From: an uncultured delta proteobacterium
Lineage (GTDB): Bacteria > Desulfobacterota > Desulfobacteria > Desulfobacterales > SG8-13
Direction of reading: 5' to 3'
Length of the DNA stretch: 64,000 bases
Assembly (NCBI GenBank): GCA_963848135.1
Contig: CAWKCK010000018.1
Span: 510,938 to 574,937 of the forward strand
The notes under the pieces: model-generated
The model's input: only the letters and a program-made list of their open reading frames with translations
Database searches by the model: none
What the model was told of the DNA's origin: nothing
Part shown: positions 23,217 to 41,874 of the stretch, one piece after another
Numbering within the stretch: position 1 is the stretch's first letter
Layout of the letters: the number at the start of each line of letters is the position of its first letter
Position numbers and translations under genes: made by a program

Positions 23217-23267
23217 AGGAGTTGGGGTAGAATATGGCTATCACCAGCCCACGCAAGAATATAAGAC

Positions 23268-23286
23268 TTTTGTTAGATAGCAGATA
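23268..23286. repeat. Repeated site A (partial copy of the recombinase-associated motif)
   Basis: TTTTGTTAGATAGCAGATA, identical to 31977-31995. Confidence 0.6.
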
Positions 23287-23330
23287 AATTGAGTTTTGTT
23301 TATAGAACGCCTATGAGAGGAATCAAAATA

Positions 23331-23358
23331 AAAAGCAGGACCCGAAAAGGTCCTGCCT
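23331..23358 (-). terminator. Intrinsic terminator of the PEP-CTERM-type gene
   Basis: GCAGGACC..GGTCCTGC stem followed by a T-tract on the minus strand. Confidence 0.65.
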
Positions 23359-23378
23359 AATACATCTATGATATGTTT

Positions 23379-24062
23379 CTATTTTTTATATTTTCTCCTA
23401 ATTCCTGCTATTCCTAAAATACCTGTACCCAACAAGATGATTGCGGGTGGCACTGGAACAGCTGACGGCGCTTTTTCATAATATAATGTTGCTTCAACTG
23501 TTGATCCATATATTTGGCCATAGTCCAAATTGAGCCAGTGGCCATCTAGATCTTTGAGAACATCTCGATTAAACGGCAATGTGGGAAGCAAGGATATACT
23601 AAACATACCGCTATCGCCAACGCCAAATGTGAAATTAGCCGAAGGACCCCAGGTCACTCGTCCCTCATCATTTATGTCGGGAAACGTAACTCCATAAAAT
23701 GTTGATTCTTCGGCATAACCTACTGTTTGGCCGGTAATTGTGCCTGTAGTTACTAAGTTTGAAAACGAAAACTCGACACTTATATCTCTCGGAATATTAT
23801 CTTCCCCGAGAGCTACATCACTTTCGGTAGTCCAAATATCAAATATGGAGAAAGGAGCTGATGTTTGTTCAGGTGATAGATCTATGATAATCGGAGATGA
23901 AAGGTATGGGGAGGAGTCCGTTGCAATATCAAGACCGGGTCCACCTGACCAAGAAGTAATAGAGAGACTATCTAAAATGAATTGATAAGCATTAGCGTGA
24001 GGTACAACGCCGCACATGAGCAGAGTCGCAAAGACAATTGACAGAATCCCATTCTTGATCAT
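23379..24062 (-). CDS. Secreted PEP-CTERM/VPLPA-CTERM sorting-signal protein
   Basis: Signal peptide; C-terminal VPVPPAIILLGTGILGIAGIRRK. Confidence 0.85.
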   Translation of the reverse strand: MIKNGILSIVFATLLMCGVVPHANAYQFILDSLSITSWSGGPGLDIATDSSPYLSSPIIIDLSPEQTSAPFSIFDIWTTESDVALGEDNIPRDISVEFSFSNLVTTGTITGQTVGYAEESTFYGVTFPDINDEGRVTWGPSANFTFGVGDSGMFSISLLPTLPFNRDVLKDLDGHWLNLDYGQIYGSTVEATLYYEKAPSAVPVPPAIILLGTGILGIAGIRRKYKK

Positions 24063-24364
24063 GGTGCCGCCCTCCTTTTTGCCCTATCTATTAGAGACTT
24101 TTTATTGTTTCGATTGTCGATGCAATAATCATGCAATATCGACTCGTTACAACGAACATAAATTAGTTAAAATAACAACAGCTTACCGAGTATACCACGG
24201 TGTGGCATAATGAAATTGTGGAGGTTAATTTACAAACATGTGTATTTCATTTCATAGTTATAACTTGATAATCATCTAAAAGGCACCTCCCGTTCGCAAA
24301 GGACACTGCGATTCGTTATAAAGGGTTGATCCCAACCATAACCCTATAACGCAGGAGGTGCCCT

Positions 24365-25384
24365 ATGGAACTGTATGCCGGTCTGGATCTTCATTCAAGA
24401 AATACTTACATCGGTATCATGGACGATGCATTCAACCGTGTCTGTAAGAGACGTGTATCCAATGACCTTGACCAGATCCTTCAAGTTTTAAAGCCCTTCA
24501 AAAAACGATTAAAGGGATTCGTTGTAGAGTCCACCTACAACTGGTACTGGCTCGTAGATGGCCTTATGGATGCGGGCTATGGCACTGCACACTTGGCCAA
24601 CCCGTCGGCCATCAAACAATACGAAGGGCTAAAGTACAGTGACGATCAGCATGATGCCTTTTTTCTGGCCAAACTTCTCATACTCGGTATTTTGCCCGAA
24701 GGCTACATTTACCCAAAGGAACATCGCCCGATGCGGGACCTGGCCCGCAAACGGATGTTTTTAGTCCGGCACAAGACCGCGAACATCTTGAGCCTGCAAT
24801 CGCTCATTCAAAGATGCTGTGCAGTAAAAATAAGCACCAGTGACATCCGAAAGATAAACGTCGAAGCATTGGAAAGGTGGCTAAAAGAAGAGTACCTGAT
24901 TTTCTCTGCTCAAACCAGTTTGGATACAATCAACTTTCTGAAGGAGAAAATTAAACACATAGAGAAGGCAATCATACAGAGAGTCAAACTCAATAAAGGG
25001 TTCCGGCAATTGCTGACAATACCCGGTATCGGTAACATCCTGGCAATGACTATCATGCTGGAAGTGGGTGACATCAAGCGTTTTCCAAAGGTCGGCAATT
25101 TTGCTTCCTACTGTCGGTGTGTACCATCGAAGCGGTTATCCGACGGTAAAAGTAAAGGGCACGGTAACCGTAAAAATGGCAATCGCTACCTGAGTTGGGC
25201 GCTCACTGAAGCCGCTCAATTGGGCCGTCGGTATAATGAACCGTTCAGACGATACTATGACCGCAAGGCCGCTCAGGCCAATACAAGCCTTGCGACCAAA
25301 GCGCTGGGCAACAAACTGGCCCGCATCTGCTACTATATCATGAGAGATCAAGTCCCCTTTCGTGAGGAGCTTATTGCGCACTAG
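24365..25384 (+). CDS. IS110 family transposase/recombinase
   Basis: GLDLH, VVESTYNW, KYSDDQHDA, TIPGIG, SDGK, GNRYL. Confidence 0.95.
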   Translation: MELYAGLDLHSRNTYIGIMDDAFNRVCKRRVSNDLDQILQVLKPFKKRLKGFVVESTYNWYWLVDGLMDAGYGTAHLANPSAIKQYEGLKYSDDQHDAFFLAKLLILGILPEGYIYPKEHRPMRDLARKRMFLVRHKTANILSLQSLIQRCCAVKISTSDIRKINVEALERWLKEEYLIFSAQTSLDTINFLKEKIKHIEKAIIQRVKLNKGFRQLLTIPGIGNILAMTIMLEVGDIKRFPKVGNFASYCRCVPSKRLSDGKSKGHGNRKNGNRYLSWALTEAAQLGRRYNEPFRRYYDRKAAQANTSLATKALGNKLARICYYIMRDQVPFREELIAH

Positions 25385-25387
25385 TTT

Positions 25388-25690
25388 GGGACTGCAGCGG
25401 TGATCCCTACATATTGGTGGTTAAAATCCCTATTGCTTGGTTGGCCACCGCTGCACTCCCTACAAAATAAATTCAGGCGGGTGTCCGCTTTTTCGATCTG
25501 CCCTTGTCATAAGCTCGCAATGGCTGGCCCGAAAGGAGCCCTATCTCTTGTAACAACCCAATTGGCTTTGACAAGGTACCGATATTTTCTGGGGTCTGGT
25601 TTCGGACCAGGGGCTTTAGATATTCTCTCTTTGGCCTTGATCCTGATGGGTGCCTGTTAGCAGATTAAGTGACGCTGCACAGCAAACAAA
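25388..25690 (+). ncRNA. Candidate bridge/seek RNA
   Basis: Stems GGGACTGCAGCGGTG/CACCGCTGCACTCCC and CCTTGTCA/TGACAAGG; loops match the target and donor junctions. Confidence 0.55.
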
Positions 25691-25814
25691 AAGAAATTTC
25701 GGGAGCAGGTAAAAAAATAGGACGTACGCCGGACTGAATTTTTTTCCTGCAAAAAAATGTACCCCTTTTGCGATGGCGTGGTGTTTTTTGTTGACTGGAG
25801 CCTTTTAATGGGTG

Positions 25815-25913
25815 CCAATAGACCAACTATCGAAATTAGCATCAATCACGAAGATACGATCCGGCTATCTCAAGCAAATCGGCCTGGTGATAGTTCAACG
25901 ATCATAGCAGATA
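25815..25913. repeat. Repeated site B (left part CTTG at 24264-67, split by the IS)
   Basis: CTTG|CCA-N7-AACTATC..GATA-N6-GGCTAT..GATAG-N10-ATAGCAGATA. Confidence 0.75.
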
Positions 25914-26026: not shown

Positions 26027-26923
26027 TCAATTACAAATTCCAGCACCTGTCTTAATAGGATCGCCACCATTTAAACTGAATAACGCTCCAGGTTCCAAGT
26101 CAATGTCTTCAGCGAATTGAGCACAATCCGCTGTATCGTCTTGGTCTAAATCAATCTCTACAGTGTAAGATTGACTTGGTACGAGCCAGAATATGTTAAA
26201 TTCTGTTGGATTTGGATTAGATGATTTCGGAACTTCAACCCGCGTATATACTTCCTGATTACTTTCTGCAAATACAATTATGGTTGCATTATCGGAGTCA
26301 CCAAATGATATATTATTAATACTACCGTTGATGGTGGCTGCCTTTAATGGGTGGTCAAAGAGGTGCATGACGGGTTTAAGCTTATATGTTGGATTTGAGG
26401 CGGGTCCAGAGACCACGAGAGACATGCTCAAATCAAAATGGATAATGAGATCGATAGCGGAATCGGAACCTACATCAACAATAAAATTTTTATCCGTCTT
26501 CAAATTATCGGAAGGAATTTCAACAGGCCAGTCATCCGTATTACCGTTGCTATTCAAAAGTCTTATAGTTGCTCTATCTACTACAAATCGTACTTGAGTA
26601 TATTTTCCAGAATTAAGTTTTGTCGGCGGAACAAGTTCAGTGGTTTTGCCACTGTGAAATTGTAACAAATCAATGGTATATGGAGATTCAACTAAAGGTA
26701 ATTGTTTCCATCCTTCTCCGGGTTTATGAATCCAAACCTCTGAAAACTCGACAAAAAAATTTGTAGCATTTTCAGGCAACAATGGCTTGGCATCTGTGAC
26801 AGACATCGTTACGATGCCGGAGCCAGCAGGGATTGAAGAACTTCCGCCGCCACCGCCACATGCAAACAAAACAAGTGTTGAGAACAATGAACCCATAATC
26901 CAAAATATATTCTTTACTCGCAC
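26027..26923 (-). CDS. DUF4382-domain lipoprotein
   Basis: Lipobox LFAC-GGGG, SVTDA, IDLL, GKYTQVRF, FDL, YKLKPV. Confidence 0.8.
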   Translation of the reverse strand: MRVKNIFWIMGSLFSTLVLFACGGGGGSSSIPAGSGIVTMSVTDAKPLLPENATNFFVEFSEVWIHKPGEGWKQLPLVESPYTIDLLQFHSGKTTELVPPTKLNSGKYTQVRFVVDRATIRLLNSNGNTDDWPVEIPSDNLKTDKNFIVDVGSDSAIDLIIHFDLSMSLVVSGPASNPTYKLKPVMHLFDHPLKAATINGSINNISFGDSDNATIIVFAESNQEVYTRVEVPKSSNPNPTEFNIFWLVPSQSYTVEIDLDQDDTADCAQFAEDIDLEPGALFSLNGGDPIKTGAGICN

Positions 26924-27408
26924 TATTTCCCCCTTTTCAATTTTCAGTCTTTATGTAGAAATTATATATTGGTAAATTGAAAAAATAGCTGCAAATAATA
27001 TGCAAGGATTATTTTGAATTTCTTAATATATAATATAATTATATAGTTGCGGCAGTATTTTTTTCTGATTTTGATATTTTTCCTGTTAATCTGTATGTAG
27101 ATTCCTTCGGTTTGTAGATAATTATTTACCGGATAGGTACAAAGTGTCCGAAAAAATATAGTTTATTAGGTATGAAATTTCATACAGGTCAGACTCAATC
27201 GGACATTAAATATCAGAATGTCTAAATAAGAGGCTGGAATTTTATTGATATTTCGTATTGATGAGCGTTTTGTTTTTCACACGTATGAAAACGACTTTAT
27301 TTTTCGGAGATCCGTTAAAATAAAATCCAGTATAAACACCGCTTAGTAGTAACCAACTATACACTTACCTTGATAACCGCAACGCACTAAAATCAAATCG
27401 AGTATGAC

Positions 27409-27424
27409 GATATGGTCTGGCTAT
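27409..27424. repeat. Repeated site C (partial)
   Basis: GATA-TGGTCT-GGCTAT, close to the copy at 35391. Confidence 0.45.
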
Positions 27425-27481
27425 AGCCAGAAATTCCACCAATATCACCAATTAGCAATCGATCAGTACGTTTGACTCTTA

Positions 27482-28831
27482 TCAATATGCTAAATTTTCA
27501 AATCTTGTATATGCTTTTAAAAAGGCCAATTTGACTTTATCAACAGGACCGTTTCTATGTTTGGCGATAATGATTTCGGCTTTGCCTTCTTCAGTGGATG
27601 ATTCCCCTTTCTTTCTAAATACCTCCGCTCGATGGATAAACGCAACAAGATCTGCATCCTGTTCAATGGCTCCGGATTCTCTGAGATCCGATAACCTGGG
27701 GCGCTTATCGTCCCTCTTTTCCAGTTGGCGATTCAGTTGGGAAAGGGCGACAACCGGGATATTCAATTCCTTTGCAAGCCCCTTTAAAGATCGGGATATT
27801 TCCGATATATCCAGATCCCGCCGTTCCGATTGCCGGTGAGCATTCATCAGCTGAAGGTAATCGATGATTATTAAGTTCAGCCCTTTATCCATTTTTAACC
27901 GCCGTGCTTTCGTTCTCAGATTCAAAACCGTGGTACCGGCCGTATCATCTATGTATAAAGGCGCTGTTCTCAGCCGGTTTCCCGCCTCTTGAATTCTTCT
28001 CCAAGCATCATCTGAAATAAAACCATCTCTGAATCGATTCGAGTTTACCCTGGATTCAGCAGCGAGAAGGCGCAGGGCCAGTTGTTCCTTTGACATTTCC
28101 AACGAAAACACGGCAACAGGAATATTGTTGTCGACCGCTACGTTGCGAGCGATATTCAAAGCGAAAGCCGTTTTCCCCATGCTTGGTCTTGCAGCGATAA
28201 TAATCAGGTCTGCATTCTGGAACCCGGAGGTCAGAGTGTCGAGTTCTTTAAAGCCAGTGGGGACCCCTGAAACACACCCTCTATTTTCACGCCTTTCTTT
28301 AATCGTATCGAAACTGCCGTCAATCAAATCTCTCACCCGATGAAATGAGGGGTTAATCTTTCTTTCAGAGATTTCAAAGATACCTCTTTCGGCCACATCG
28401 ATCATCTCTTGAACATCACATCGCACTTCTAAACAGCTACGGACAATATCATTACCCTTTTCAAGCAGAGCCCTCAGCGTACCGTTGTCATGCACAATCC
28501 TGGCATAGTGGCGGACATTGATTGCAAATGGGGCCCTCTCCATAATTTTTGATAGGTAGACCGGCCCGCCGACCTTGTCCAAATCACCTCTGACTTTCAA
28601 TTTGTTGTTGAGGGTCACAAGATCGACCGGTTCATCATCCTTGTATAAGTCGACGATGGCAGAGAAAATTCTTTGATGAGCCGATCTGTAGAAGTCACCC
28701 GGGGACAATATTTCTATAATATCATTCAAGGTGCGGTTATCTATCAAAACTGAACTAATCAAAGACTCTTCGGCTTCGATGTTATGCGGCGGCAGTTTGT
28801 TTAGAAGAGGATCTTCGCAGTACGGCATCAC
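27482..28831 (-). CDS. dnaB: DnaB-family replicative helicase (accessory copy)
   Basis: PPHNIEAE, AARPSMGKT, SLEMS, IDYLQL, LSQLNR, LRESGAIEQDAD, KHRNGP. Confidence 0.93.
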   Translation of the reverse strand: MMPYCEDPLLNKLPPHNIEAEESLISSVLIDNRTLNDIIEILSPGDFYRSAHQRIFSAIVDLYKDDEPVDLVTLNNKLKVRGDLDKVGGPVYLSKIMERAPFAINVRHYARIVHDNGTLRALLEKGNDIVRSCLEVRCDVQEMIDVAERGIFEISERKINPSFHRVRDLIDGSFDTIKERRENRGCVSGVPTGFKELDTLTSGFQNADLIIIAARPSMGKTAFALNIARNVAVDNNIPVAVFSLEMSKEQLALRLLAAESRVNSNRFRDGFISDDAWRRIQEAGNRLRTAPLYIDDTAGTTVLNLRTKARRLKMDKGLNLIIIDYLQLMNAHRQSERRDLDISEISRSLKGLAKELNIPVVALSQLNRQLEKRDDKRPRLSDLRESGAIEQDADLVAFIHRAEVFRKKGESSTEEGKAEIIIAKHRNGPVDKVKLAFLKAYTRFENLAY

Positions 28832-29124
28832 CTTTTTCCCCTAACCCGCATTTTTCACTAATCGCATTCGTTCATTTACAAGGCATTCAGGGGAGCAGCT
28901 GTAATCTGGTACCGCAAGCCTCTGATAACGCAGTAAATGGGCGAATGCGGTTGGCCCCGCGGGTGAATATTTTTTAGCATTTTTTTTCAGATCGTTGGGG
29001 GTACAAAATGAATATTACAATTTAGCGGCAGAATAAGGTTTAACTCACTGGTATTATGTATATTTTAAAGGTGCGCTGAAAAATATTCATGAAATATGCG
29101 GGCTAAATGATCCGCGACGACTCA

Positions 29125-29153
29125 TATATTGTTCGATATAATCGAACAATATA
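29125..29153. promoter_or_regulatory. Perfect 13-bp inverted repeat, candidate operator upstream of dnaB
   Basis: TATATTGTTCGAT-ATA-ATCGAACAATATA. Confidence 0.65.
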
Positions 29154-29181
29154 GCCAAAATTTTTTGGCGCTTATAAAATG

Positions 29182-29877
29182 TTATGTAGCGTATTGCCTG
29201 CTACCCCACCCAACTTTCGCGGTGGTCTCATTGATAATCAGGCCCAGTTCCTGAAGCCGTATAATCAACGCCTGTTTTGATACGTTCAGAAAACCACCAG
29301 CGTTTTGTACAGCCTGGGCAATGAAAGGCCAATTGCTGACACAAGGTTCGATGTAAATAGAGCTGTCTATCACGCTTTTTTCATTATAAAATTTGATTGG
29401 CTGGCTTCCGACCGATTTCTCGAAGGCTGACCGCACCCACTTTTCGGGCAGTAACATACAAGCTGCAAAATAATCTGCCTGCCATTCGATGGGCTTTTTT
29501 GCATCTTTTTTCCGGCAAAGGATAGCCGTTCTGTCTGCGCGTGGACCTCCATCATCATTAATATATTTTCTATGCAATACCCAGTGACCGACCTCATGGG
29601 CAAACGTGAATACGAGTCGTCCTTCATTGCAGTCGCTAAGCAAATGGGTATTGGCACATATCAATCCCTTTTTTACATAGGTAGCGCCAAGGACACCCTG
29701 CATACCGTAATTCTTTTCAAAATCTACGAAACCAATTTTCAAATCAAAATATCTTTCGATGATGTCTTCTACTGGAATGGGTGGCCTAACCACGCAACCT
29801 AGCTTCGATTCGTATCCCGCGATGATATCTTCGGCAATGAGTTGGATACCATTTTTCGGAAGCCACGGAACCTTCAT
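29182..29877 (-). CDS. ImmA/IrrE family metallo-endopeptidase
   Basis: PIPVEDI, FTFAHEVGH (HExxH), EWQADYFAA, NVSKQA..IRL. Confidence 0.88.
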   Translation of the reverse strand: MKVPWLPKNGIQLIAEDIIAGYESKLGCVVRPPIPVEDIIERYFDLKIGFVDFEKNYGMQGVLGATYVKKGLICANTHLLSDCNEGRLVFTFAHEVGHWVLHRKYINDDGGPRADRTAILCRKKDAKKPIEWQADYFAACMLLPEKWVRSAFEKSVGSQPIKFYNEKSVIDSSIYIEPCVSNWPFIAQAVQNAGGFLNVSKQALIIRLQELGLIINETTAKVGWGSRQYAT

Positions 29878-30251
29878 TTTTTTACGTCCTCCCTCTTTCC
29901 AAGTTTTGACAATCGGGCCAATTGGGTCAGGCGATCCCAGTCGTCACCACTATATTCTTGGTCTTTCGCCATTCTGAGAAAATCCGCAACCTGTGGTTGA
30001 TCGGCAACATATTCACTGAGTTCCGGATCGACTTTTTTCGCTTTGTTCAACAGGACCTTTTTATCGACGCTTAATGCCCTGGAAATATTGACGATGGTTT
30101 CCTCGGAGGGCGGGGGCACATTATCCAGTTCCACATCGCTGATATATCCTGGTGACTTTCCAATGAGGCGAGCCAATTCTCTTAAGCCTACACCGGCAGA
30201 ATTTCTGAGGGATCGAAGTAGTTGCCCAAATGTTTCTTTACTTTTTTTCAT
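29874..30251 (-). CDS. XRE-family HTH regulator
   Basis: FGQLLRSLR..GLRELARLIGKSPGYISDVE; ATGA overlap with the peptidase gene. Confidence 0.88.
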   Translation of the reverse strand: MKKSKETFGQLLRSLRNSAGVGLRELARLIGKSPGYISDVELDNVPPPSEETIVNISRALSVDKKVLLNKAKKVDPELSEYVADQPQVADFLRMAKDQEYSGDDWDRLTQLARLSKLGKREDVKK

Positions 30252-30254
30252 CAA

Positions 30255-30288
30255 TGTTCTATTAGACCGAACACTGGTGTACTGTCAA
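30255..30288 (-). promoter_or_regulatory. Sigma70-type promoter with overlapping operator for the XRE gene
   Basis: TTGACA (30288-83); TGTTC-N9-GAACA at 30255-73 directly before the start codon. Confidence 0.55.
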
Positions 30289-30482
30289 GTTGTTTTTATT
30301 AAACGAGGACTAAAGTTTTCAGATACCGCCCCATCATATAGCCTCACACTGAAGGTTTTCAAAAAACGCCGATCTGGAAATAAGAGAAATGGAAGTGGAA
30401 CGGTGAATGGCGTAGTCGGGCGTGATTACTGCAAAAGCGATAAAGCCACGAGGGGTTCACCCCTTTGTTGTTTTCTCGGGTA

Positions 30483-30540
30483 GGACTATACTCGCGCCCT
30501 TGGCGTGACAGACCACGATCCCGCCTCTATCGGGATTAAC
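30483..30540 (-). pseudogene. Degenerate tRNA-Asp(GTC)-like relic preceded by a small hairpin
   Basis: Minus strand CTGTCACGCC-AAG-GGCGCGAGT resembles the tRNA-Asp anticodon arm and T-stem start; no intact T loop or acceptor stem. Confidence 0.35.
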
Positions 30541-30796
30541 GTCCATCTCTTAAACCCTTGGGAAAGCGGCTGATGCCGCGCTTTTTGATTTTGCGCTCAA
30601 GCATCGTTGCTTCAGAGCCGGTAGAAACCTGTTGGGACCAAAACAGAATCCAGGGGCCACGAAAGCGTTTGGTGGTTTTTGATAAGTCATTGTCAGGATT
30701 GTTGTGCTGGGAGAGTCTGACTGGCAGGTCTGTGGTTTGCCCGCAATAGTAGCGGCAGGTAGATTGGCTTTGGAGGATGTATACCCAGTGCTCCAT
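30536..30796 (-). CDS. Small GIY-YIG nuclease
   Basis: WVYILQS..YYCGQT..RL..HN, GPW, ERKIK. Confidence 0.85.
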   Translation of the reverse strand: MEHWVYILQSQSTCRYYCGQTTDLPVRLSQHNNPDNDLSKTTKRFRGPWILFWSQQVSTGSEATMLERKIKKRGISRFPKGLRDGR

Positions 30797-31222
30797 CATA
30801 AAAAAGGCCGGTGAAACCGGCCATAATTATCGTGGCTCACCGAGGGCTACGAATGTGAGAACATAAAAACCAAAATCATTTTGAGGGGTTATGAAGGTAA
30901 GGCTATATTAGGACCGCCAAGCCCTCACGTGAAAGATTCCATCGCTATCCACACCTAATCATCTATGACAATAACCCGAGTGTGGGTGTCGCTAAGCAGC
31001 TCGGTCCCCTACCCTGCAAACGAACTGATGAGGTGCAATAACCAAGACTCAATCTGTCACTTTTAAAATCAAGACATAATTTGACCTGACAAAACGCAGA
31101 GTTGTGATAAATTTACAGTATATGAATTTTTCAGGAGGCTAATTTTATACAAATGGACGGTAGATATATAAAACGGCAAGCCCCAAGAAGCCCTGCCGTT
31201 GAATGTCGAGTATCCAAAACAC

Positions 31223-31624
31223 CTACTTTTCTTTAACCTTATAATTGACGTTTGGACTCTCGCCTTTAAATGGATACTCTTTATCATTAGGGTCGTAATG
31301 CAGCTGAATGCCAGTATCGTAGCAAGCATCGAATTTTACAATATCAGAGGTGATTGTGACGTTACGCTCACAGTCCATGTTCATAGCAGCAGTACGGATT
31401 TTTACCACTACATTTTCTCCACGTTCTTCAAAAATCCAATCGCTTACCCCACTACTATTCCCACGCCATTCTACCAACCACCCATTGGGTCGAAGTAGCA
31501 GAGCCTTTATTTTGCCTGCGCCGCCTGTTGCAGTGTCCCCTCCGGCAATAGCATAATCGAGTGTACTTAGACTGAAAACCAAAACAATTGCTAACGTCAA
31601 GGCGGAGATTCGAGAACAAGACAT
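31223..31624 (-). CDS. Hypothetical secreted protein
   Basis: Signal peptide, GGGGG RBS, downstream hairpin 31172-31201. Confidence 0.6.
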   Translation of the reverse strand: MSCSRISALTLAIVLVFSLSTLDYAIAGGDTATGGAGKIKALLLRPNGWLVEWRGNSSGVSDWIFEERGENVVVKIRTAAMNMDCERNVTITSDIVKFDACYDTGIQLHYDPNDKEYPFKGESPNVNYKVKEK

Positions 31625-31976: not shown

Positions 31977-31995
31977 TTTTGTTAGATAGCAGATA
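31977..31995. repeat. Repeated site D (partial)
   Basis: 19-bp identity with 23268-23286. Confidence 0.6.
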
Positions 31996-32074
31996 CATTT
32001 AGCGTCTGGTTTGTTGGCTGGAAGCTCTTGTTAGTGACAAACAATAAGTCCGGCGGGTTTCTTTTTAACGGTGC

Positions 32075-32959: not shown

Positions 32960-34861
32960 CTATTTCGTTTTATTTTGTTCCGCTTCGACCTGCTTCGCGG
33001 CGACAGCCGCTGCGGCACCGGCCTGAACAGCCTTTTTATTACGTTCAACGGCTTCCTCATCCGACGGCATGTAGACTGTTACATTGCGATGGGCGAATTC
33101 GATGCCATTATCCCTGAAAGCCTCTTGCATCATCCGGAATACCTCTCGCCGAATGACAAACTGCTCGCCCGGTATGGTTTTAAACTTCACTCGCATAATC
33201 ATGGCCGAATCATCCAATTCTCTGACCCCCTGGGATTTAACCTTACCTAGCATTACTGGGCCCATCTCTTTATCTTTCTTGATTTTTTTATTGATCTTCT
33301 TAATAATTTTTCTGACCCTATCGACGTCCGTGTCGTAACGCACGCGAAAATCAAGTTTGGAAATGATGTAGTCCCGGCTGTTATTGGTCACCGTGTCCAT
33401 GCTGCCGAAGGGGATCGTATGAACAGGGCCCCGAGGACTGCGCAGTCTCAACGAGCGCAGGGATATATGTTCTACCGTACCCTTCATGCCGCTAGTTTCG
33501 ATGTAGTCGCCGACCCGGAAAGCATCATCGATGAGGAAGAAGACGCCTGCGATAATATCTTTTACCAGGGTCTGGGCACCGAACCCAATGGCCAAGCCGA
33601 TCACGCCGGCACCTGCCAGAAGCGGAGCAATGTTTATCCCCATTGAGGAGAGCAGAAGCAGGATTACGATGGTGAACATCACGACCACCATCGTTTTGCG
33701 CAGCAAGAGGAGCAAGGTTTCACTCCGGGAGCCGCCGGCACCGCCTTCTTCCGCCTGACTATCTTGTTCCGGTAGGTCTTCCTCTATGTTTTTTTGGATG
33801 TGGGATTTCACAAACTCCCATAAAATTAAACCGACCAAAAAGAGTATGAAAATCCGCTGCAGGGTATTTTCGAGGAATATGAGCACCGATCCGGTAATAT
33901 TGATATGCTCGTCAAGAATATACTTTATCAGACTGACCATCAGCACGGTAAAAAGGATAACCAAAAGCCATCCGGTAGTTTTCTTTCCTGAAGAAAGCTC
34001 GGCAGTCCTTCGATACCACCACCGGACAAGCAGCCGAACAACCAGCAAGACAACAAGGGGCAGAACAGCCAGTGCGCACCACTGCCATAGAGTCTGATCA
34101 AGGTACGTCGCATTTGACCAGGCTGGCAGCCATTGGCTCCACTTGGGCGGCAACAGTCGGCCGGGATTGGTTACATAAAAATCAAAAAATTCACTGCTGA
34201 TGAGCGCATTCTGCTTGTAGGGATAGTCTTTTACTTTACCGTAGAATTCTTCAAGTCGAACGACCGTCTCAGGGGTAAAGAGAAACTCCCCTTCGCGGGG
34301 ACCTTCCTCAACCCGGTCAATGATAATATCAGTATTGGGGATTCGCCAGCGAATCAATTCCGCTATTTTCTCCATTTCTTCCTCAGCTTCGATGGCTTCG
34401 GCGTCTGGGATCTTTTCAAATGGGGGAAGGTCGATCCGGTCGAAAACCTCTTTGAGCATGATGGCGCCCTCGTAACCTGTATTCTTCTTCAGATTCGTCG
34501 GAACCTGGCTTAAATTCAAGCATTCGACGCCGCTTTCGAAAAATTCCTCTGCTTGTTTTACCATCTGCCGGACCGATTCTGAGGGAAAGTATCCGGGCGT
34601 TTTCAAGTTTTTTCGATGGGCCTTCATCAACATACTGTAAGCAAGGTTCATATTTTCGATAAAGCTTCTCAGCGTCTCCCGTGGACTGACCGTATTGGGT
34701 GGCTTGAGCAAAGCATTAGCGCTTCCAGAAGAATCATCATCCTCTGGGCGTGTTGATGTGGATTCTACCGAAGCGGCTTCTTGCGCAATTGCGATAGTCA
34801 CAACAAACGCCGCGATGAATAAAATTGTCGTGAATCGAAATATTGATTGGCTCAATTTCAT
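32960..34861 (-). CDS. Large MscS-family mechanosensitive channel
   Basis: LLAGAGVIGLAIGFGAQTLVKD, FRVGDYI, GTVEHI; signal peptide at MKLSQ. Confidence 0.88.
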   Translation of the reverse strand: MKLSQSIFRFTTILFIAAFVVTIAIAQEAASVESTSTRPEDDDSSGSANALLKPPNTVSPRETLRSFIENMNLAYSMLMKAHRKNLKTPGYFPSESVRQMVKQAEEFFESGVECLNLSQVPTNLKKNTGYEGAIMLKEVFDRIDLPPFEKIPDAEAIEAEEEMEKIAELIRWRIPNTDIIIDRVEEGPREGEFLFTPETVVRLEEFYGKVKDYPYKQNALISSEFFDFYVTNPGRLLPPKWSQWLPAWSNATYLDQTLWQWCALAVLPLVVLLVVRLLVRWWYRRTAELSSGKKTTGWLLVILFTVLMVSLIKYILDEHINITGSVLIFLENTLQRIFILFLVGLILWEFVKSHIQKNIEEDLPEQDSQAEEGGAGGSRSETLLLLLRKTMVVVMFTIVILLLLSSMGINIAPLLAGAGVIGLAIGFGAQTLVKDIIAGVFFLIDDAFRVGDYIETSGMKGTVEHISLRSLRLRSPRGPVHTIPFGSMDTVTNNSRDYIISKLDFRVRYDTDVDRVRKIIKKINKKIKKDKEMGPVMLGKVKSQGVRELDDSAMIMRVKFKTIPGEQFVIRREVFRMMQEAFRDNGIEFAHRNVTVYMPSDEEAVERNKKAVQAGAAAAVAAKQVEAEQNKTK

Positions 34862-35348
34862 AATATTAGTTCCTTTGAATCCTTCACACGATATGATCCG
34901 CCTATCTGATCTGACTTGGTCGGTACAAATATATTGCCAGAATTGATTATCTGTTACCCCAATTTCCTGCGTAATTTGTATTTTAGCCAACCCAAAACTC
35001 AAGGGATTAATGAAAGATTGATTCGCACTTTTTTGTGTTTACGGCAATTTTAGTGGCGACGAATAGATTATGGAAAAATTATATATAATGACTGAAGTTA
35101 TCAATCTTGTGAGAAATAAGATTAAGGTATTATAAATTGAGTTGAAAGACAAATACATCATTCGTGTATTTCAGATTCACAAATATACAGAATTTTACTT
35201 CATGAAAAACTGTGGGTTTCGTACCTGCTTCGAATCTTTAGGTGGACCCGAATAACTCAAGATTGGCGGATGTAATATTCATTTTGGGGAAATTGCAGAT
35301 TTGGGCATGATCGGGAGGACTTTCGGGGTCACACACAACCTATTGTTT

Positions 35349-35448
35349 CTTGCCACAGGTCAAACTATCCGTAATTACGCCAAATATCACGATATCGTCT
35401 GGCTATATTCAGGAAATCCGCCGAGTGATAGATGTTGGACCATAGCAG
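35349..35448. repeat. Repeated site F (complete, uninterrupted)
   Basis: CTTGCCA-N7-AACTATC..GATA-N6-GGCTAT..GATAG-N10-ATAGCAG. Confidence 0.75.
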
Positions 35449-35480
35449 CAGATTTGAGTTCTCACATTCGTTTGATACGG

Positions 35481-37707
35481 GTAAGTAGCGCGGAGAAGTC
35501 TCACCCCCACGCCCTCCAAGAACCGTACGTGACAGTCTCCCGTCATACGGCTCCTACTGTCCAGCCGACGGCCGATAGCCAAATTCCCAGGAAGCAATTA
35601 ATCTGGGGTCTCGGCGTGCAATGCAACCCAACCAATGGGTCGCTTTGAGCCAATGGCCTCTCAACCTCTTGTATTTCCGCATCGCCCAACGAACCAAGGC
35701 ATACTGAAGCTGGCGAAGGATGGGACGCATTGCTGATTTGTAGTATCTGCCATAGTAATTCAACCAACCCCTTATAACAGGATTGATTCGCCTGGCAACA
35801 TCCTCTAATGACGAGGAACTCCATAATTGCAGTTTCCAGCTCCTTATCGTAGCACTCATCGCCTTTAGCGCCGATTTGCTCACCGCTGGGTTAAAACCCA
35901 CCAAATAGTTTCGCCCTCTACAGTCATGGGGCCGAAAGCTATAGCCGAGAAAATTAAAACTCTCATGCTCATGGCTTCCAGGGCGTTTTGCATCCTTACA
36001 ATATACAATCTTCGTCTTCTCCGGATGCAATTGCAGCTTGCAGCGTGCCAGACGTCTCTCAATGACTCTCAGCATAACCCGCGCCTGAGCTTCCGTGTGA
36101 CAGTGGACAATAATATCATCCGCATATCTTGCAAATGGTGTACTCGGATGATTTACTCTCATCCACTCATCAAATGCGTGGTGAAGAAAAATGTTGGCCA
36201 GCAGAGGGCTGATAACACCCCCTTGCGGCGTGCCCTCCAACGTCTTGAACCATTTGTCGCCCTCCAGGACCCCGGCTCGCAGCCACTGCTTTATTAGCCG
36301 CAGTATTCGTGGGTCGGCAATCCTGCGTGCAACCATCCGCAGAAGCCACTCGTGGTCAACCGAGTCGAAAAATCTACGAACGTCTGCGTCGAGCACCCAG
36401 TTTATTTTGCGTTTAATTAGCGCTGCATTAAGCGACTGCAAAGCATGATGCGGGCTTCGCCCCGGCCTAAAACCATACGAAAAACCGAGAAAGTCAACCT
36501 CATAAATTGCGCTCAGAACCTCTGATACCGCTCCCTGGACAATCTTGTCTTCCAGTACCGGTATACCAATCGGTCGCAGAGCTCCATCTGCTTTGGGCAC
36601 ATAAGCCCTTCGCACTGGCCGAGGTCGGTAGCTTCCCGAATGGACCCGGTCGCATAACCTTTTAAGATTAGCTTCCAGATTTTCGCCGTACGCTTCCACC
36701 GTAACGCCATCGGCCCCGGCACTCGCATTCCGCCTTTGCCGGTTGTAGACTCTTCTAAGAGCCTCCACGTCGATGTGATGCATCAATGCTGTAAACCGGG
36801 TCTTGCGCGATTTCCTCGCCGCCTCGTTCACTCTGGCAAGATTGGCTGGCAAGGCTGCCCGACCCTGTGTTCGGACCTTCGCCTTCCTACCAGAGTTCCC
36901 CTCAGGCCAGGGCCTTCCCTCCGTACACCGCGTACTATTTTCCTTCGTTGACATCATCAGTACTACACCCCAGTCCGCCACCCCGCCTCAGCTCAGATCA
37001 AGGCTCCGGTCATCCCTTGCCCTGATCCCCCTACAGTGACCATCTATAGGACCCGACGGGGCTTCCTGGGTTCCTATGCCATCCTTTCGTACGTGATGTG
37101 GTCTCAGACCCCGATGGAGCAACATCGTCTCGCGTTAACGACGATGCATATGCTGCCTTCGACGCGTGGGACGGTCTCGGCCTCCACAATTAGTGTATTT
37201 CGTGGCTCAATAGCACACCCCGCACAAATGCTGTCTACGCTTCGAACGCCCTGTTACCAGTACGCTCGCAAGACTCGCTCCCGGCCCGCTCGCTAAGCTT
37301 TAGCCGGACGGGACTTTCACCCGCAAGATGTCACAAACTTCTCCCAGCGCACCCCACGTTCCGCACAAAAGCCTGGGCCAAGTTCATGCCATCTCTATGC
37401 CGGACGCCGCCCAGACAATAAACAGGCTCTCTCTGGGCTTATCCTGCAGGCCTCCAAGTACCCACAGTTTTGACGCCATCTCAGATATTTCGACACCTCA
37501 TCAATGGTTCGCTTGCACTCATCTCCTTGATCCGTACCGGACACGGTCTTTGGCCATGCCTTTCCCTTAACGCTCACCACAACGGCTCTTTACCGATGCA
37601 GCTTAAGGTGGTTTGAAGCCTGCTCCTGCAAGCCGACTCCGAGGGACCCTCCCTCATCTTCTGTGCAGTTACGCACACTTTATATTAAAAGTGCGCTCGT
37701 GGCGCAC
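35481..37707 (-). mobile_element. Group II intron locus with two nested 5' ends and one 3' end
   Basis: GTGCG starts at 37707 and 37352; domain V GAGCCGTATGAC.GGGAGAC.GTCACGTACGGTTC; domain VI ends GCTACTTAC near 35481. Confidence 0.88.
35554..36981 (-). CDS. ltrA: Group II intron reverse transcriptase/maturase, no endonuclease domain; start uncertain
   Basis: RPIGIP, SYGFRPGR, DADV..FFD, GTPQG, RYADD, FLG, domain X RGWLNYY. Confidence 0.92.
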   Translation of the reverse strand: MADWGVVLMMSTKENSTRCTEGRPWPEGNSGRKAKVRTQGRAALPANLARVNEAARKSRKTRFTALMHHIDVEALRRVYNRQRRNASAGADGVTVEAYGENLEANLKRLCDRVHSGSYRPRPVRRAYVPKADGALRPIGIPVLEDKIVQGAVSEVLSAIYEVDFLGFSYGFRPGRSPHHALQSLNAALIKRKINWVLDADVRRFFDSVDHEWLLRMVARRIADPRILRLIKQWLRAGVLEGDKWFKTLEGTPQGGVISPLLANIFLHHAFDEWMRVNHPSTPFARYADDIIVHCHTEAQARVMLRVIERRLARCKLQLHPEKTKIVYCKDAKRPGSHEHESFNFLGYSFRPHDCRGRNYLVGFNPAVSKSALKAMSATIRSWKLQLWSSSSLEDVARRINPVIRGWLNYYGRYYKSAMRPILRQLQYALVRWAMRKYKRLRGHWLKATHWLGCIARRDPRLIASWEFGYRPSAGQ

Positions 37708-37717
37708 TTGGAGACAT

Positions 37718-37776: not shown

Positions 37777-37800
37777 ATAATGAATTTCTATGACAGATTT

Positions 37801-38259
37801 CTATATTTTGATCAGATTCATAATGTCTTCATTCAAGGGAATATCCGCCATCGAATGTCCGTAATGCACATACCGAAGCATTCCAGACTTATCAATCAGC
37901 ATCTGGGCTGGCATTCTGCCCAACTTGAACAAATTGACCTCCTGCCCGTATAATTTTAAAATTTTATGTTTCGGATCAGGTAATCCGATAAATGGCAGGT
38001 CTTCCTTTTTCCAGTACTTCTGAAAAGATTCGGCATCCTCAGGTCCAATTACGACTATTTCTGTATCCAGTTTAAAAAAGCGCTGATAATCTTGACGCAA
38101 CTGCGCCATATGCTTGCGGCAGAATGGTCAGACAAATCCACGATTAAAAACTACCAGCACATTTTTCTGTCCGGCAAAATCTGAAGGTGAAACGTTGCTT
38201 CCATTAAAATCGGGTAAGGTAAACTCAGGAGCATGGGTATTTAGCTCAACTTTGGCCAT
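37801..38259 (-). CDS. Peroxiredoxin-like (AhpC/TSA) selenoprotein with UxxC
   Basis: MAKVELNTHAPEFTLPDFNG...NRGFV-TGA(38130-28)-PFCRKH is in frame with the 102-aa ORF; GGAG RBS; downstream hairpin. Confidence 0.85.
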
Positions 38260-38494
38260 GATTGGCTCCTTACTCTTAAATTTCTAATGTACCTTGGAAA
38301 ACCTGATTGGTGAAGATTCCTCTTTGGGTAAAATGCCTGTCGACTACAGATACATTGAGAGTAATTGAAAATCGTAGGATGGGTCAATAATCAAACCTGC
38401 TTGCCACTGTACGACATAAAAAGGTAATTGACTGAAAGTGTTACAGAGGTCATTATCTGCCTGTTTTTTCTGCTAAAAACGAAAGGAGGCAGTG

Positions 38495-39580
38495 ATGAAC
38501 CTCGAACACGTTTCCGCAGAAATCCAGACCGATCAACTCAAAAGGCATCGGTCCGGCAAGGACAAATCAATTCGTTCGTCCTCGGTCCGTTCCAATTTCG
38601 ATCGAAATCCCTTCACTTTCAATCCTCTTATTGACCGAATCCTACGCAAAATCACCGTGCAGGATCTCTTGGCTGCGGAGCATGTCGAGGCATATTTGCG
38701 CGATCAGCATCGACGCAATTGCCGACACAACACGATCCGATCCAACGGCGCCAACATTACCGGTTTTTTACGTTTTCTCAAAGACAGCGGCATCGATCAA
38801 CTGCAAGCCATCAACCGCGAGCACATCGCCGAATTCGTTGAACATGAGCAAGGCCGCGGGCTTTCACCCAATACGGTCAGCACTCAGTTGCGCTGCCTGT
38901 ATGCCTTTATCAACTTTTTGATCGATCGCGATGTGCTTCACCCGGATCTGCTCAAGCGCAAACTGCGCATTAAAGTTCCCGATGCCCTGCCGCGGGCCAT
39001 TGATCCGGATCATATCAAGCAGCTGTTGGCCGTAGTCAAAAAACCGCGTGATCGCGCCCTGGTATTGACATTGTTGCGAACCGGGATGCGCATCGGCGAG
39101 CTGCTCGGCACCAAAGTGGAAGATCTCAACCTGCGGGAAAATATTATACAAATCATAGAAGCACAAAAGAACCGGGTCGGACGCGTTGTCTATTTGAGCG
39201 ATGATGCCCGAAGCGCTCTAATAAAATGGCTGAACACCAGGAGAAGACAAAGCGGGTTCATCTTCTACGGCAACTGCGGGCGAGCCCTGGGTTATGCGGC
39301 TGCCCGCCTAATCTTCAACGCCTATCTGCAAAAATCCGGACTGGCCCACAAGGGATATACCCTGCACTGCCTGCGGCACACCTTCGCCACAGAGCTGCTC
39401 AACGCCGGTATGCCGCTGCAGTGTTTGCAGGAGCTTCTCGGGCACAGCTGCATCGAAATGACCCGCCGCTATGCCCGGCTGACCGACAACACGCGCCGGG
39501 AACAATACTACAAAGCCATGGCCATCGTCGAAAAGGGAGAACTCCATGGACATTACCAACTCGATTATCAACTACCGTAG
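38495..39580 (+). CDS. Tyrosine recombinase A (intact)
   Basis: TGMRIGE, HCLRHTFAT, LLGH, RRY. Confidence 0.93.
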   Translation: MNLEHVSAEIQTDQLKRHRSGKDKSIRSSSVRSNFDRNPFTFNPLIDRILRKITVQDLLAAEHVEAYLRDQHRRNCRHNTIRSNGANITGFLRFLKDSGIDQLQAINREHIAEFVEHEQGRGLSPNTVSTQLRCLYAFINFLIDRDVLHPDLLKRKLRIKVPDALPRAIDPDHIKQLLAVVKKPRDRALVLTLLRTGMRIGELLGTKVEDLNLRENIIQIIEAQKNRVGRVVYLSDDARSALIKWLNTRRRQSGFIFYGNCGRALGYAAARLIFNAYLQKSGLAHKGYTLHCLRHTFATELLNAGMPLQCLQELLGHSCIEMTRRYARLTDNTRREQYYKAMAIVEKGELHGHYQLDYQLP

Positions 39581-40483
39581 GTTCTTAAAGCGACGCAATT
39601 ACTCCGCCCATACGCTGCGAACCTATATGAGCACCCTGAAGCAGTTTGTCGTCTGGCTGGATATGCCCGTGGAGGCTGTCACCCACAAGAAACTATTGGG
39701 CTTCATCGATTATCTGCGCAGCAAGCGTTTGAAACCCAAGACCGTCAATTGCTACCTGGACAGCATCCGCGGCTTTTATGATTACCTGATCAACGAAGAG
39801 GAGGTTGTAATGAGCAATCCGGTCAAGCGCGGGTATACCTTAAGGCTCTCCAGGCCACTGCCGCGCTACCTGCGGGATGAAGAGATCTCTGCGCTCTTTG
39901 CGGTCATCGACAATCCCAGAGACCGGGCCATCTTCAAGCTGATGCTGCGCTGCGGACTCCGGGTCGAAGAGGTAACCAATCTCACTCTGAGTGCCTTGGA
40001 CCTGCCGCGGTATCAAGTGTTTGTCTACCAGGGCAAGGGGCTAAAAGACCGTGTGGTCTATCTGAGCAAGGACGCATACACCGCACTTGGCTGCTTACCT
40101 TAAAGCCAGACCCCACTCGCGGGTCAAAAAGCTCTTCCTGGTGGAAAAGGGCCGCTTTAGAGGCAAACCGCTCAAGGCCCGCGGCATCCAGCACCGCATG
40201 CAGCTCTATGCCAAGCAAAGCAGGGCTGAGAGTCTGTTGCCATCAACTTCGCCATACGATGGCCACGCAGATGCTCAACGCCGATGCCGACCTGGTTACC
40301 ATCCAGGATCTGCTCGGCCACACGCGCATAAAAACCACGCAGCGGTATTGTCGGGTCTCCAACCCGAAGGTTCGACGTGATTACTATAGCGCCATGAACA
40401 AGGTGCTTCAACGCCACACCGGTGACGGTGAAAAAACTCTTGACAAAGAGCAAAAACCAATACATTTAATGGGCTATAACTAA
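39546..40483 (+). pseudogene. Tyrosine recombinase B with two +1 frameshifts (near 40088 and 40217)
   Basis: CGLRVEE in frame 1, AAYLKARP in frame 2, HQLRHTMAT/LLGH/QRY in frame 3. Confidence 0.85.
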
Positions 40484-40639
40484 CCATTATTAATAGAAAT
40501 AATAGGTTTTATGTCGTACAGCTTGCCAGTCTCGTAACTATCGAAAATAGCGTTGAAACTGAATATACTTTCTGAGTATCATTGGTTTACCTCGGGATTT
40601 CCCCGATTGTCAAACATCAATAACCAAAGGAGGTAAACC

Positions 40640-41477
40640 ATGAAAGTGGCCAAAGCCGCGAGAATCTGGATCGATTGCCACAAAGCCCACTCGGAAAAAA
40701 AATACCGTACGGTCATACTGGTCAGTTATTGACCGATTCTGCCAGGAGTTCGGTGATGCAGGGATTGAACAGGTTACACCGGATGATGTCCTTTCCTTTC
40801 TGAACAGCTTTACCAACGGTAACAAGCCCTAGACAAAGCGAGTCCGTTATTCCCACCTGTCCGCCTTTTTCAATTTTTTCCGCAATAACGTCGACCCCGA
40901 CATAGGCAATCCGTGTGACACACCCATGATCCGAAAGCTTTATCGGGAAAGGGTGGTATCAAGATGGAAAATCATCGAAAAAGAGACCGTTGACGAGATC
41001 ATTTTCCGGACTACCAAAATTCGCAATCGATTGATGCTTGAACTGATGGCCCGTGGGGGGATGAGGGTTGGTGAGGTGCTGAAACTCAGATTGAATGACA
41101 TTCAGGATCGAAAGCTGATCCTGCGAGAACCGAAGAGCGGGAAAGAACATATGATTTTTTTTATTCCACAAAAGGTGGCTGATAGACTCCGTGACTACGC
41201 CTCTCAGACTTGTAATAGACCAGATGACCGCATTTTTCCGATTACCTATGCAGCAGCCAGGCTGGTTGTAATAAAAGCGGGAAAGACGGTTGGGATCCAT
41301 TTGAGACCCCATGACCTGCGGCGGCATTCGGCTACTTATGCCTCTCGATCCGGAGCGCCAATCGAAATCGTGAGCAAGGTCATTCTCCGTCACGCAAATC
41401 TTGCAACCACTCAGCGGTATCTTGGAACAATCAGTGATACAGAGGCGATGAGGTGGATTGAAAACCTATATTGCTAA
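40640..41477 (+). pseudogene. Tyrosine recombinase C; frame change at the A8 run (40695-702) and in-frame TAG (40830)
   Basis: GGAGG RBS, MKVAKAARIW.., then NTVRSYW..NKP*TKR..; GMRVGE, HDLRRH, LRH, QRY. Confidence 0.85.
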
Positions 41478-41482
41478 ACGAA

Positions 41483-41513
41483 AGGGGTGAATCCCTTGGT
41501 TGGCTTCACCCCT
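41483..41513 (+). terminator. Hairpin after recombinase C
   Basis: AGGGGTGAA..TTCACCCCT. Confidence 0.55.
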
Positions 41514-41523
41514 CTATTCGTTA

Positions 41524-41584
41524 GATACCGGTTGGCTATCTCAAGCAAACCGGCCAGATGATAGCTCAAAGGTCATAGCAGATA
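41524..41584. repeat. Repeated site G, right half (left half at 40522-40542)
   Basis: GATA-N6-GGCTATCTCAAGCAAA.CGGCC..GATAG-N10-ATAGCAGATA, nearly identical to 25853-25913. Confidence 0.8.
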
Positions 41585-41874
41585 TTATTTTTTCAACCTT
41601 TTCAACCGAACCGACGATATCTGTACTTTTGAGGCGAGCAATTTATGCCAGATTACCATATGATATTCACAGTAATTGGCCATTGAACGTTAATAGCCGA
41701 AATCTACAATTGTTATTGATTGTGTATTATACAGGCTAATAAAATACCGAACCCAATCCATTGATTTTATAGCCTTCACGCCGTGGCGTCACCGGCACGA
41801 TCAGAATCGCCTGTCTTCCCGTTCAGTGTTAGATATTCGATGTTGGGGGCTGACGGTATTATAGTACATAGAAT

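Follow-up and report, generated by a model that had tools for sequence, protein, structure and literature searches.

Which process places unrelated, co-oriented single genes one after another between copies of a short repeat? The question was raised by a 64,000-nucleotide stretch of the genome of an uncultured delta proteobacterium of the Desulfobacterales (GenBank assembly GCA_963848135.1, contig CAWKCK010000018.1, positions 510,938 to 574,937; hereafter "the window", position 1 being its first letter), in which a composite motif recurs between minus-strand genes and around three tyrosine recombinase genes, here called A, B and C. A preliminary description of this DNA took the motif copies for attachment sites of recombinase C, or for mini-elements, delimiting captured modules. 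In the reading favored here, to which we give a probability of roughly 0.6, the arrays are made up of mobile cassettes joined through site-specific recombination at CTTGCCA, the word that opens each site, with recombinase C as the likely enzyme. Places elsewhere in the genome are given as C17:position and the like, and related genomes as G003, G005, G006 and G007.

A family of 100-bp sites arranged in arrays

The left part of the motif, CTTGCCA-N7-AACTATC, matched the window three times at up to two mismatches (25811, with two mismatches, 35349 and 40522) vs. an expectation of 0.38, and three or more matches were obtained in none of 100 shuffles of the window. The right part recurred at 25852-25913, 35390-35451 and 41523-41584. 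With the significant profile matches given below, these counts put the composite motif far above chance and bear out the preliminary description in this respect. The consensus of the whole site, about 100 bp long, was CTTGCCA-N7-AACTATC .. GATAC-N6-GGCTATC .. GATAG-N10-ATAGCAG, and its two ends were imperfect inverted repeats of each other (CTTGCCA vs. CTGCTAT). A site profile, iterated with nhmmer over the whole genome, found 76 copies in the 6.03-Mb assembly, and a covariance model made from 25 full copies, with sequence information only, found 80. The copies grouped into 23 clusters, 11 of them with at least two sites (17, 11 and 9 in the biggest) and 12 consisting of a single copy. Copy-to-copy identity was 60-90%, and the conserved feature of the aligned copies was a series of sequence boxes.

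Two of the sites proposed in the window, B and F, proved to be full copies (25813-25908, E 6.7e-23; 35351-35446, E 1.1e-21), and site G was split around the gene for recombinase C, as had been described (40524-40581, model positions 1-58, E 1e-7; 41513-41579, model positions 30-96, E 3.5e-15). The partial copy noted at 27409 was likewise recovered (27375-27441, model positions 7-73, E 2.6e-10). The other partial copies listed at that time (23268, 31977 and 32574) did have the right-end box ATAGCAG, but their profile matches were below significance (best E 2.6). A divergent subtype of the site was also present, in which a degenerate CTTGCCA was followed by GGCTATCA .. TAGATAGCAG; positions 23190-23290 aligned lengthwise with seven other genome copies of this subtype, and 23259-23293 was 86% alike to 31968-32002. 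Site B is interrupted by an insertion sequence (IS) of the IS110 family, and the proposal that excision of this element would restore the site agreed with two observations: the junctions read ..CTTG|IS|TGCCA.. in all five copies of the element in the genome, and one metagenome contig was IS-less, running directly from 24264 to 25813.

The sites and their genes were regularly oriented. The nearest open reading frame (ORF) to the right of the site was on the opposite strand for 63 of the 76 sites, its stop codon facing the site at a median distance of 127 nt for full sites, and in the 35-kb array of C17 one gene after another followed the same pattern of site and opposite-strand gene. Among neighboring site pairs in five genomes, 126 had the same orientation and 9 switched strand.

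Duplicated units and synteny breakpoints

One complete unit was found twice in the genome. Window positions 35346-35479 plus 37708-38407 (site F and a peroxiredoxin gene, with the group II intron between them excluded) corresponded to C17:1233937-1233104 with 99% identity over 834 bp; the identity ran from one CTTGCCA to the next, and the flanks beyond both ends were unrelated. The selenocysteine peroxiredoxin itself (UPFC motif) is encoded at 37801-38259 of the window and at C17:1233402-1233710. Short inverted repeats flank the word in the duplicated cassette (AAACCTG CTTGCCA CAGGTCA), and CTTGCCA with such flanks, in this cassette and at the element carrying recombinases A and B, has what appears to be the form of a tyrosine-recombinase core. 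In the relative G007, the peroxiredoxin cassette was located between two full sites, with high identity from the core of the left site to the next CTTGCCA.

Array regions of the genome under study (G000) and of G003, G005, G006 and G007 (855 kb in total, the loci of the relatives having been picked around listed site matches) were compared for blocks of at least 400 bp and at least 85% identity between different genomes, excluding ends at locus edges. There were 123 inter-genome blocks, and 126 of 466 block ends were at -25 to +125 with respect to a site vs. 16.6 expected from coverage; without the 56 blocks corresponding to IS110, introns or C units, 52 of 252 ends were within the same limits vs. 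9.1 expected, although these statistics overstate independence, because the loci were chosen around site matches and the genomes are kin. Thirty of the 52 in-site breakpoints lay at the CTTGCCA box (-11 to +16) vs. six at the core (+35 to +66), so that the spacer of GATA-N6-GGCTAT, an inner part of the motif as first described, was not the main junction. Four of the inter-genome blocks started at a site's left end and stopped at that of the following site (C17:1210700-1213081 vs. G005; C17:1216948-1218372 vs. G003; locus L072 of G003 vs. L037 of G006; and L066 of G003 vs. L073 of G005). The shuffling of cargo at the motif, which the preliminary description had set as a test, was thus found in the 834-bp duplicate and in the clustering of breakpoints, mainly at the outer CTTGCCA box; the site family is associated with recombination, delimits unrelated co-oriented genes and coincides with synteny breakpoints.

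Nineteen public metagenome runs from 12 studies contained 19-37% of the words of window positions 32000-41900, and four of them were aligned to the window. Their contigs included the IS-less joint already mentioned and mosaic sites.

The cargo of the arrays was mixed. Genome-wide, 33 of the 76 array ORFs had no Pfam match, and the cargo included methyltransferases, old yellow enzyme (OYE) and flavin reductases, major facilitator superfamily transporters, nickel superoxide dismutase (Ni-SOD), MscS channels, PIN and GNAT proteins and many DUFs. In the window, the cargo was on the minus strand as previously listed, and Pfam found DUF4382, DnaB, DUF2938 and MscS, the PEP-CTERM match being weak and below the cut-offs. 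The PEP-CTERM, DUF4382, DUF2938 and MscS cassettes were not at a syntenic place in five relatives.

According to the mechanism that we propose, the genome would contain about eleven arrays of small mobile gene cassettes, this region among them, each cassette extending from one CTTGCCA box to the next and comprising a double-stranded site of about 100 bp and, usually, one opposite-strand gene to its right. Site-specific recombination would be the process by which cassettes become joined, are lost and are copied, the crossover being at the asymmetric 7-bp CTTGCCA, which would cause new cassettes to stack in one orientation, and less frequently at the inner core or at the ATAGCAG end. The most likely enzyme would be recombinase C, a small Xer-like tyrosine recombinase whose gene is inside some of the site copies and whose full-length product would depend, in most copies, on slippage at a run of nine A. 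On this view, the 100-bp sites would be forms of the C unit that lack C and are served in trans.

Features of the window

The array and its guests comprised the following features (window positions):
23190..23290, plus strand: leftmost array site, of the divergent subtype (aligned with 7 subtype copies)
23379..24062, minus strand: PEP-CTERM/VPDSG-CTERM cargo protein (weak Pfam matches, below curated cut-offs)
24268..25812, plus strand: IS110-family element at the TG of the CTTGCCA of site B (CTTG at 24264-24267, TGCCA from 25813; Pfam DEDD_Tnp_IS110 and Transposase_20)
25813..25913, plus strand: site B, a full copy with its first box interrupted by the IS (nhmmer, model positions 1-96)
26027..26923, minus strand: DUF4382 cargo protein (Pfam; no DNA match in 5 related genomes)
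27375..27441, plus strand: partial site adjoining the dnaB stop codon (nhmmer; counterpart partial site in G006)
27482..31624, minus strand: dnaB module, with DnaB, M78 peptidase, helix-turn-helix and GIY-YIG proteins and two unknown ORFs (Pfam; synteny with G006:C13 and G007:C12)
31968..32002, plus strand: right-end site fragment ..GTTAGATAGCAGATAC.. (sequence comparison)
32075..32551, minus strand: DUF2938 cargo protein (Pfam; no DNA match in 5 relatives)
32574..32640, plus strand: junction remnant, with an ATAGCAG box, 4 bases, and CTTGTCA with the divergent subtype's left arm (compared with the copy at C1:247983)
32960..35002, minus strand: MscS-type mechanosensitive channel cargo (Pfam)
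35349..35451, plus strand: site F, a full copy and head of the duplicated peroxiredoxin cassette (nhmmer; 99% identical to C17:1233937-1233804)
35480..37707, minus strand: group II intron with reverse transcriptase/maturase, 28 nt past site F (Rfam RF00029, RF02005 and RF01999; NCBIfam TIGR04416)
37801..38259, minus strand: selenocysteine peroxiredoxin cargo, U44 in FVUPFC (one TGA read as U; Pfam AhpC-TSA)
38400..38406, plus strand: CTTGCCA, at once the right-hand limit of the peroxiredoxin cassette and the left direct repeat for the A/B element
38407..40521, plus strand: A/B element, 2,115 bp, with A at 38492-39580 and B (broken) at 39546-40483 (15-bp inverted ends CTGTACGACATAAAA)
40522..41584, plus strand: site G and, nested in it, the C unit (left half-site 40522-40581, C gene 40641-41477, right half-site 41513-41584)
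41596..41706, plus strand: flank after site G, 72-77% identical to 32646-32773 (recurs after sites in relatives)

At the junction remnant, metagenome contigs had CTTGCCA joined to 32597. The sequence of about 130 nt found just after sites (32646-32773 and 41596-41706) had copies in G003 and G007 with 95-96% identity to 32646-32773, and came directly after a left half-site in G007 and in one metagenome contig. Two further repeats were observed in the window: one of about 170 bp (18797-18969), unrelated to the cassette site and present, at 72-97% identity, in dozens of copies in each of the five relatives searched, and one of about 265 bp between dnaB and the M78 peptidase gene (28841-29105), with many copies in G006 and G007.

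Recombinase C and its unit

The C unit (40522-41584, 1.06 kb) recurred in at least four other places of the genome as a block of 83-94% identity that extended over the whole unit, CTTGCCA and ATAGCAG ends included. Since its left part corresponds to site positions 1-58 and its right part to 30-96, the inner GATAC-N6-GGCTATC core is present on both sides of the C gene. Among 202 sites from five genomes, "left-only" copies ended at positions 57-82 and "right-only" copies started at 17-43. The site had been described as bracketing a recombinase; C is indeed repeatedly nested in it, but the half-sites travel with C as one copied 1.06-kb block.

In aligned homologs, read by eye, C retained the R, K, HxxR, H and Y residues, by which it looks functional, and its nearest solved structures were XerA and XerD. 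The copy in the window has a run of A at 40695-40702 (a G and eight A) as well as a TAG stop at 40830-40832, whereas two other copies in the genome were without an internal stop; a naturally intact C gene is present at C5:34536-35303. The leader of the gene was readable in 67 of 89 homolog copies and out of frame with the gene body in 51 of these 67; a nine-A run in one particular frame was present in 35 of the 51 out-of-frame leaders, and 12 of the 16 in-frame leaders had no A-run. This frame pattern, together with the nine-A run, points to programmed slippage rather than decay, and the run looks like a transcriptional or ribosomal slippage signal controlling the recombinase. The frameshift of C is not simply decay, given the conservation of the A-run across homologs, though the window copy does carry the TAG stop besides. 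Recombinase C is the best candidate for the enzyme that moves the cassettes.

The A/B element and other guests of the site

Recombinases A, B and C are not one unit: A/B and C are two separate elements. The A/B element (38407-40521) starts with CTGTACGACATAAAA, ends in its exact reverse complement and has a CTTGCCA on each side; all three complete copies in the genome had perfect 15-bp inverted ends and a duplicated CTTGCCA, and in the window the element must therefore have integrated into the CTTGCCA box of site G. It contains two overlapping genes for Xer-like tyrosine recombinases in 2.1 kb and no other cargo. SE elements, which have two tyrosine recombinases, may be a comparable case. Recombinase B was split into two ORFs in the window and intact (311 aa) in the C17 copy; metagenome contigs were one base shorter than the window at 40085 and at 40213, both in gene B. 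Two of the three A/B copies were followed by a site without C. No homolog of A was detected in the 15 other genomes of the genus (E 1e-40), so the element is a recent guest, and a role of A/B as the general cassette recombinase was rejected for the same reason.

The site is a target for two further mobile elements of the window. The IS110-family element was inserted at the TG of CTTGCCA in five of five genome copies, and the group II intron was precisely absent in G007:C3 and in the C17 copy of the cassette. Two more group II introns (C18:452911-453943 and C18:591051-592900), 98% identical to one in G007, started at about +90 of a site; introns thus recur at the right end of the repeat.

Distribution of the site and of recombinase C

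The survey covered 41 genomes: G000 and 40 relatives, 15 from the same genus and 25 from outside it. The site model matched 17 of the 41, among them 13 of the 15 other genus genomes, with 1 to 65 copies each; homologs of C (E 1e-20) were found in 15 of the 41 and in 8 of the 15. The co-occurrence of site and recombinase C, which had also been set as a test, held in one direction: all eight genus genomes with C had the site, and the two genus genomes without the site had no C match either, but five site-bearing genomes were without a C match. Four genomes outside the genus had C and no match to the genus-level site model.

Among species-representative genomes, at least 382 stretches encoded C relatives, mostly in metagenome-assembled genomes (MAGs) of the Desulfobacterales, and C relatives were also present in two complete genomes, those of Desulfosarcina widdelii PP31 and D. 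variabilis Montpellier. The end words of the unit were followed in 80 of these stretches, with C homologs of 59-85% identity from other genera. Of 71 loci, 30 had an exact CTTGCCA at 159-283 nt upstream of the point where the alignment of C starts, vs. one on the reverse-strand control, and an ATAGCAG-like word was found downstream of C in 33 of 75; around C homologs more remote than about 68% identity, where the genus-level site model detects no sites (any match in 8 of 80 loci), only the end words could be traced. The C unit of D. widdelii has an 85-nt left end that was repeated 2 kb upstream with 85% identity. Four loci (L080, L091, L112 and L116) had C homologs of 73-85% identity in MAGs labeled Acidobacteriota, Draconibacterium, Chloroflexota and Anaerolineaceae, reflecting either cross-phylum transfer or binning errors.

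Weighing of the cassette reading and its rivals

Apart from the limited independence of the breakpoint counts, several observations weigh against the cassette reading. Besides the six breakpoints in the core, 12 of the 52 in-site breakpoints were at the ATAGCAG end (+90 to +125), the remaining 4 being elsewhere in the site, and the inverted arms around CTTGCCA were poorly conserved, which is unusual for a tyrosine-recombinase core. The C-unit blocks spanned from -1..-11 to +98..+103 with unrelated flanks and different cargo, as a small self-moving element would also do. The dnaB module was at a syntenic place in two relatives, and is therefore more resident than the cassettes; in G007 it occupied the same place with no site beside it, so not everything between sites is a cassette. 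The same relative, whose genome is 94% complete, had 48 sites and no match to C (E 1e-20) or to A; it is one of the five site-bearing genus genomes without a C match, and no recombinase strictly co-occurred with the site. That the sites delimit cargo and that C is nested in them agrees with the earlier proposal of attachment sites of C; the 48 sites of G007, with no C match, lend no support to a dependence of the site on C. Finally, neither circles nor excised units were observed, the metagenome data consisting of contigs, which are unable to reveal circles or excision.

Among the rival explanations, one takes the 100-bp repeats for miniature, non-autonomous copies of the C unit, inserting alone into hypervariable islands; cargo would not be mobilized, and the arrays would reflect a preference for insertion near existing copies. 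The C unit and the short repeat do share both ends, which are imperfect inverted repeats, breakpoints occurred at both ends of the repeat, 12 of the 23 clusters were single copies, and C units were copied as blocks between unrelated flanks. Against it stand the 834-bp duplicate and the four inter-genome blocks, in which the cargo is contained and which stop at the following CTTGCCA, and the orientation bias of the genes (63 of 76); no target-site duplication was visible by eye in the alignment of 33 full copies, and copies only 60-90% alike are unlike a recent burst. We regard this explanation as unlikely, though it has to be kept in view. Less probable still would be a host-maintained intergenic element in 3' regions (a binding platform, or an element similar to repetitive extragenic palindromes), used as a landing pad by IS110, A/B, C and the introns, with shuffling as a by-product. 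That four different mobile elements target the repeat, that a relative keeps 48 copies with no match to C or A, and that the recent duplicate ends exactly where the A/B element sits all favor such an element; its confinement to variable arrays and nearly to one genus (13 of 15 genomes vs. 4 of 25 outside), the CTTGCCA-bounded cassettes common to genomes in which no A homolog was found, and the lack of a predicted fold fitting an RNA or terminator role speak against it.

Two readings based on described systems are very improbable. Co-oriented single-gene units, each with a 3' site, recall a true integron or an integrase-less attC cluster (CALIN) with unusual attC sites, but the tests of two defining features, IntI and an attC that folds, were negative. 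In searches with the IntI models (TIGR02249/NF011946), A, B and C scored 33-78 bits vs. a cut-off of 265, and with TIGR02249 nothing in a six-frame search of the whole genome was over the cut-off (best 93.5 vs. 265 bits). On both strands, single-stranded DNA folds of sites B and F were no more stable than shuffles (z -0.60 to +1.51), and RNAalifold predicted 0 pairs for the 25 aligned full copies, i.e. the sequence is conserved and not a structure. The integron/attC reading was rejected on these grounds. A known RNA family was also considered and discarded, the Rfam gathering search of the whole window matching the group II intron only. The other reading, hardly more than a formal alternative, would make the three adjacent recombinase genes a recombinase-in-trio (RIT) element and the motif its terminal repeat. 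Three tyrosine recombinase genes do lie in a row on one strand, with A and B overlapping, but the inverted ends and the CTTGCCA duplication of the A/B element exclude C, two of its three copies precede a site without C, C units occur alone in at least four places, and A was present in 0 vs. C in 8 of the 15 genus genomes; the RIT reading was rejected as well. In one account, RIT elements have a RitA with two core-binding domains and a RitC with an extra C-terminal helix (PMC8138268).

Going beyond the window, it is conceivable, though we hold it only tentatively, that the Desulfobacterales possess an independent integron-like capture system sharing no part with integrons, in which CTTGCCA cassettes would be excised and stacked by a site-borne Xer-like recombinase gated by slippage on nine A. 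A full-text search of the published literature, judged on titles and abstract openings, returned no description of such a system. It would be directly testable, as it is widespread and includes cultured Desulfosarcina. If true, gene-cassette capture would have evolved more than once, and the system would account for a portion of the accessory genome of sulfate reducers that abound in sediments, including cargo related to redox and stress (selenoperoxiredoxin, Ni-SOD, OYE reductase and MscS); a compact pair of recombinase and site would also become usable as a tool. Such arrays escape integron-finding software, which looks for IntI and for the folds of attC.

Comparison with known systems

Accretion of islands at tRNA or tmRNA genes, as in the tycheposons of Prochlorococcus, resembles the arrays in the repeated integration beside an earlier element, the co-orientation of units and the many units without an integrase. 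In our case, however, the core is not the end of a tRNA or tmRNA gene, and the units are single genes with a conserved 100-bp head. A core derived from such genes was examined and dismissed: only one of the 52 Aragorn genes (a tRNA-Gly on C4, in its anticodon loop) contained CTTGCCA, far from the arrays. Its anticodon arm (tRNA-Gly(GCC), C4:277311-277385; CGACC TTGCCAA GGTCG) resembles the cassette junction ACCTG CTTGCCA CAGGT, which may be chance or may mean that the core descended from an anticodon-loop attachment site. Seven tRNA or tmRNA genes were within 8 kb of a site (arrays on C17, C18, C5 and C2), among them a tRNA-Lys 672 nt past the end of the largest array and the tmRNA 7.5 kb from the array at C18:445-456 kb, and the arrays may thus sit in islands at classical integration hot spots.

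The pdif modules of Acinetobacter plasmids are bounded by 28-bp sites (11-6-11) of alternating orientation, recognized by XerC/XerD. They share with the arrays the principle of genes bounded by short sites of Xer-type recombinases in varied contexts, and differ from them in that our sites are about 100 bp long, co-oriented (126 same vs. 9 switched) and have a recombinase gene of their own. In REPIN-RAYT systems and in pairs of miniature inverted-repeat transposable elements with their autonomous partners, a short repeat likewise shares its ends with a longer unit carrying the enzyme gene between the halves, just as the C unit has the same CTTGCCA and ATAGCAG ends as the short site; here the enzyme is a tyrosine recombinase and not an HUH or DDE enzyme, and the repeats are arrayed with co-moving cargo.

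To our knowledge, integrons have no well-understood counterpart in the stacking of single promoter-poor genes by site-specific recombination. Sedentary chromosomal integrons and CALINs resemble the arrays in several respects: rows of mostly single, unrelated, co-oriented genes, each with a recombination site (one ORF plus a 3' site in the arrays, co-oriented in 63 of 76 cases); a moving unit consisting of gene and site, whose junction is at the site's far end; and the involvement of a tyrosine recombinase. IS110-family elements and group II introns are known to target attC sites, and elements of the same two kinds parasitize the sites described here. Of the earlier proposal of an integron- or pdif-like array with an unrecognized type of site, the site type stood, being neither attC nor an Rfam family, but the likeness to integrons and pdif modules did not extend to their defining parts. 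The arrays differ from integrons in having no IntI, in sites made of sequence boxes without a hairpin, and in having no single intI-attI-Pc platform: recombinase genes lie in mid-array, within sites or between them, the candidate recombinase gene is inside site copies and present several times per genome, and the genome has many arrays, 11 of them with at least two sites.

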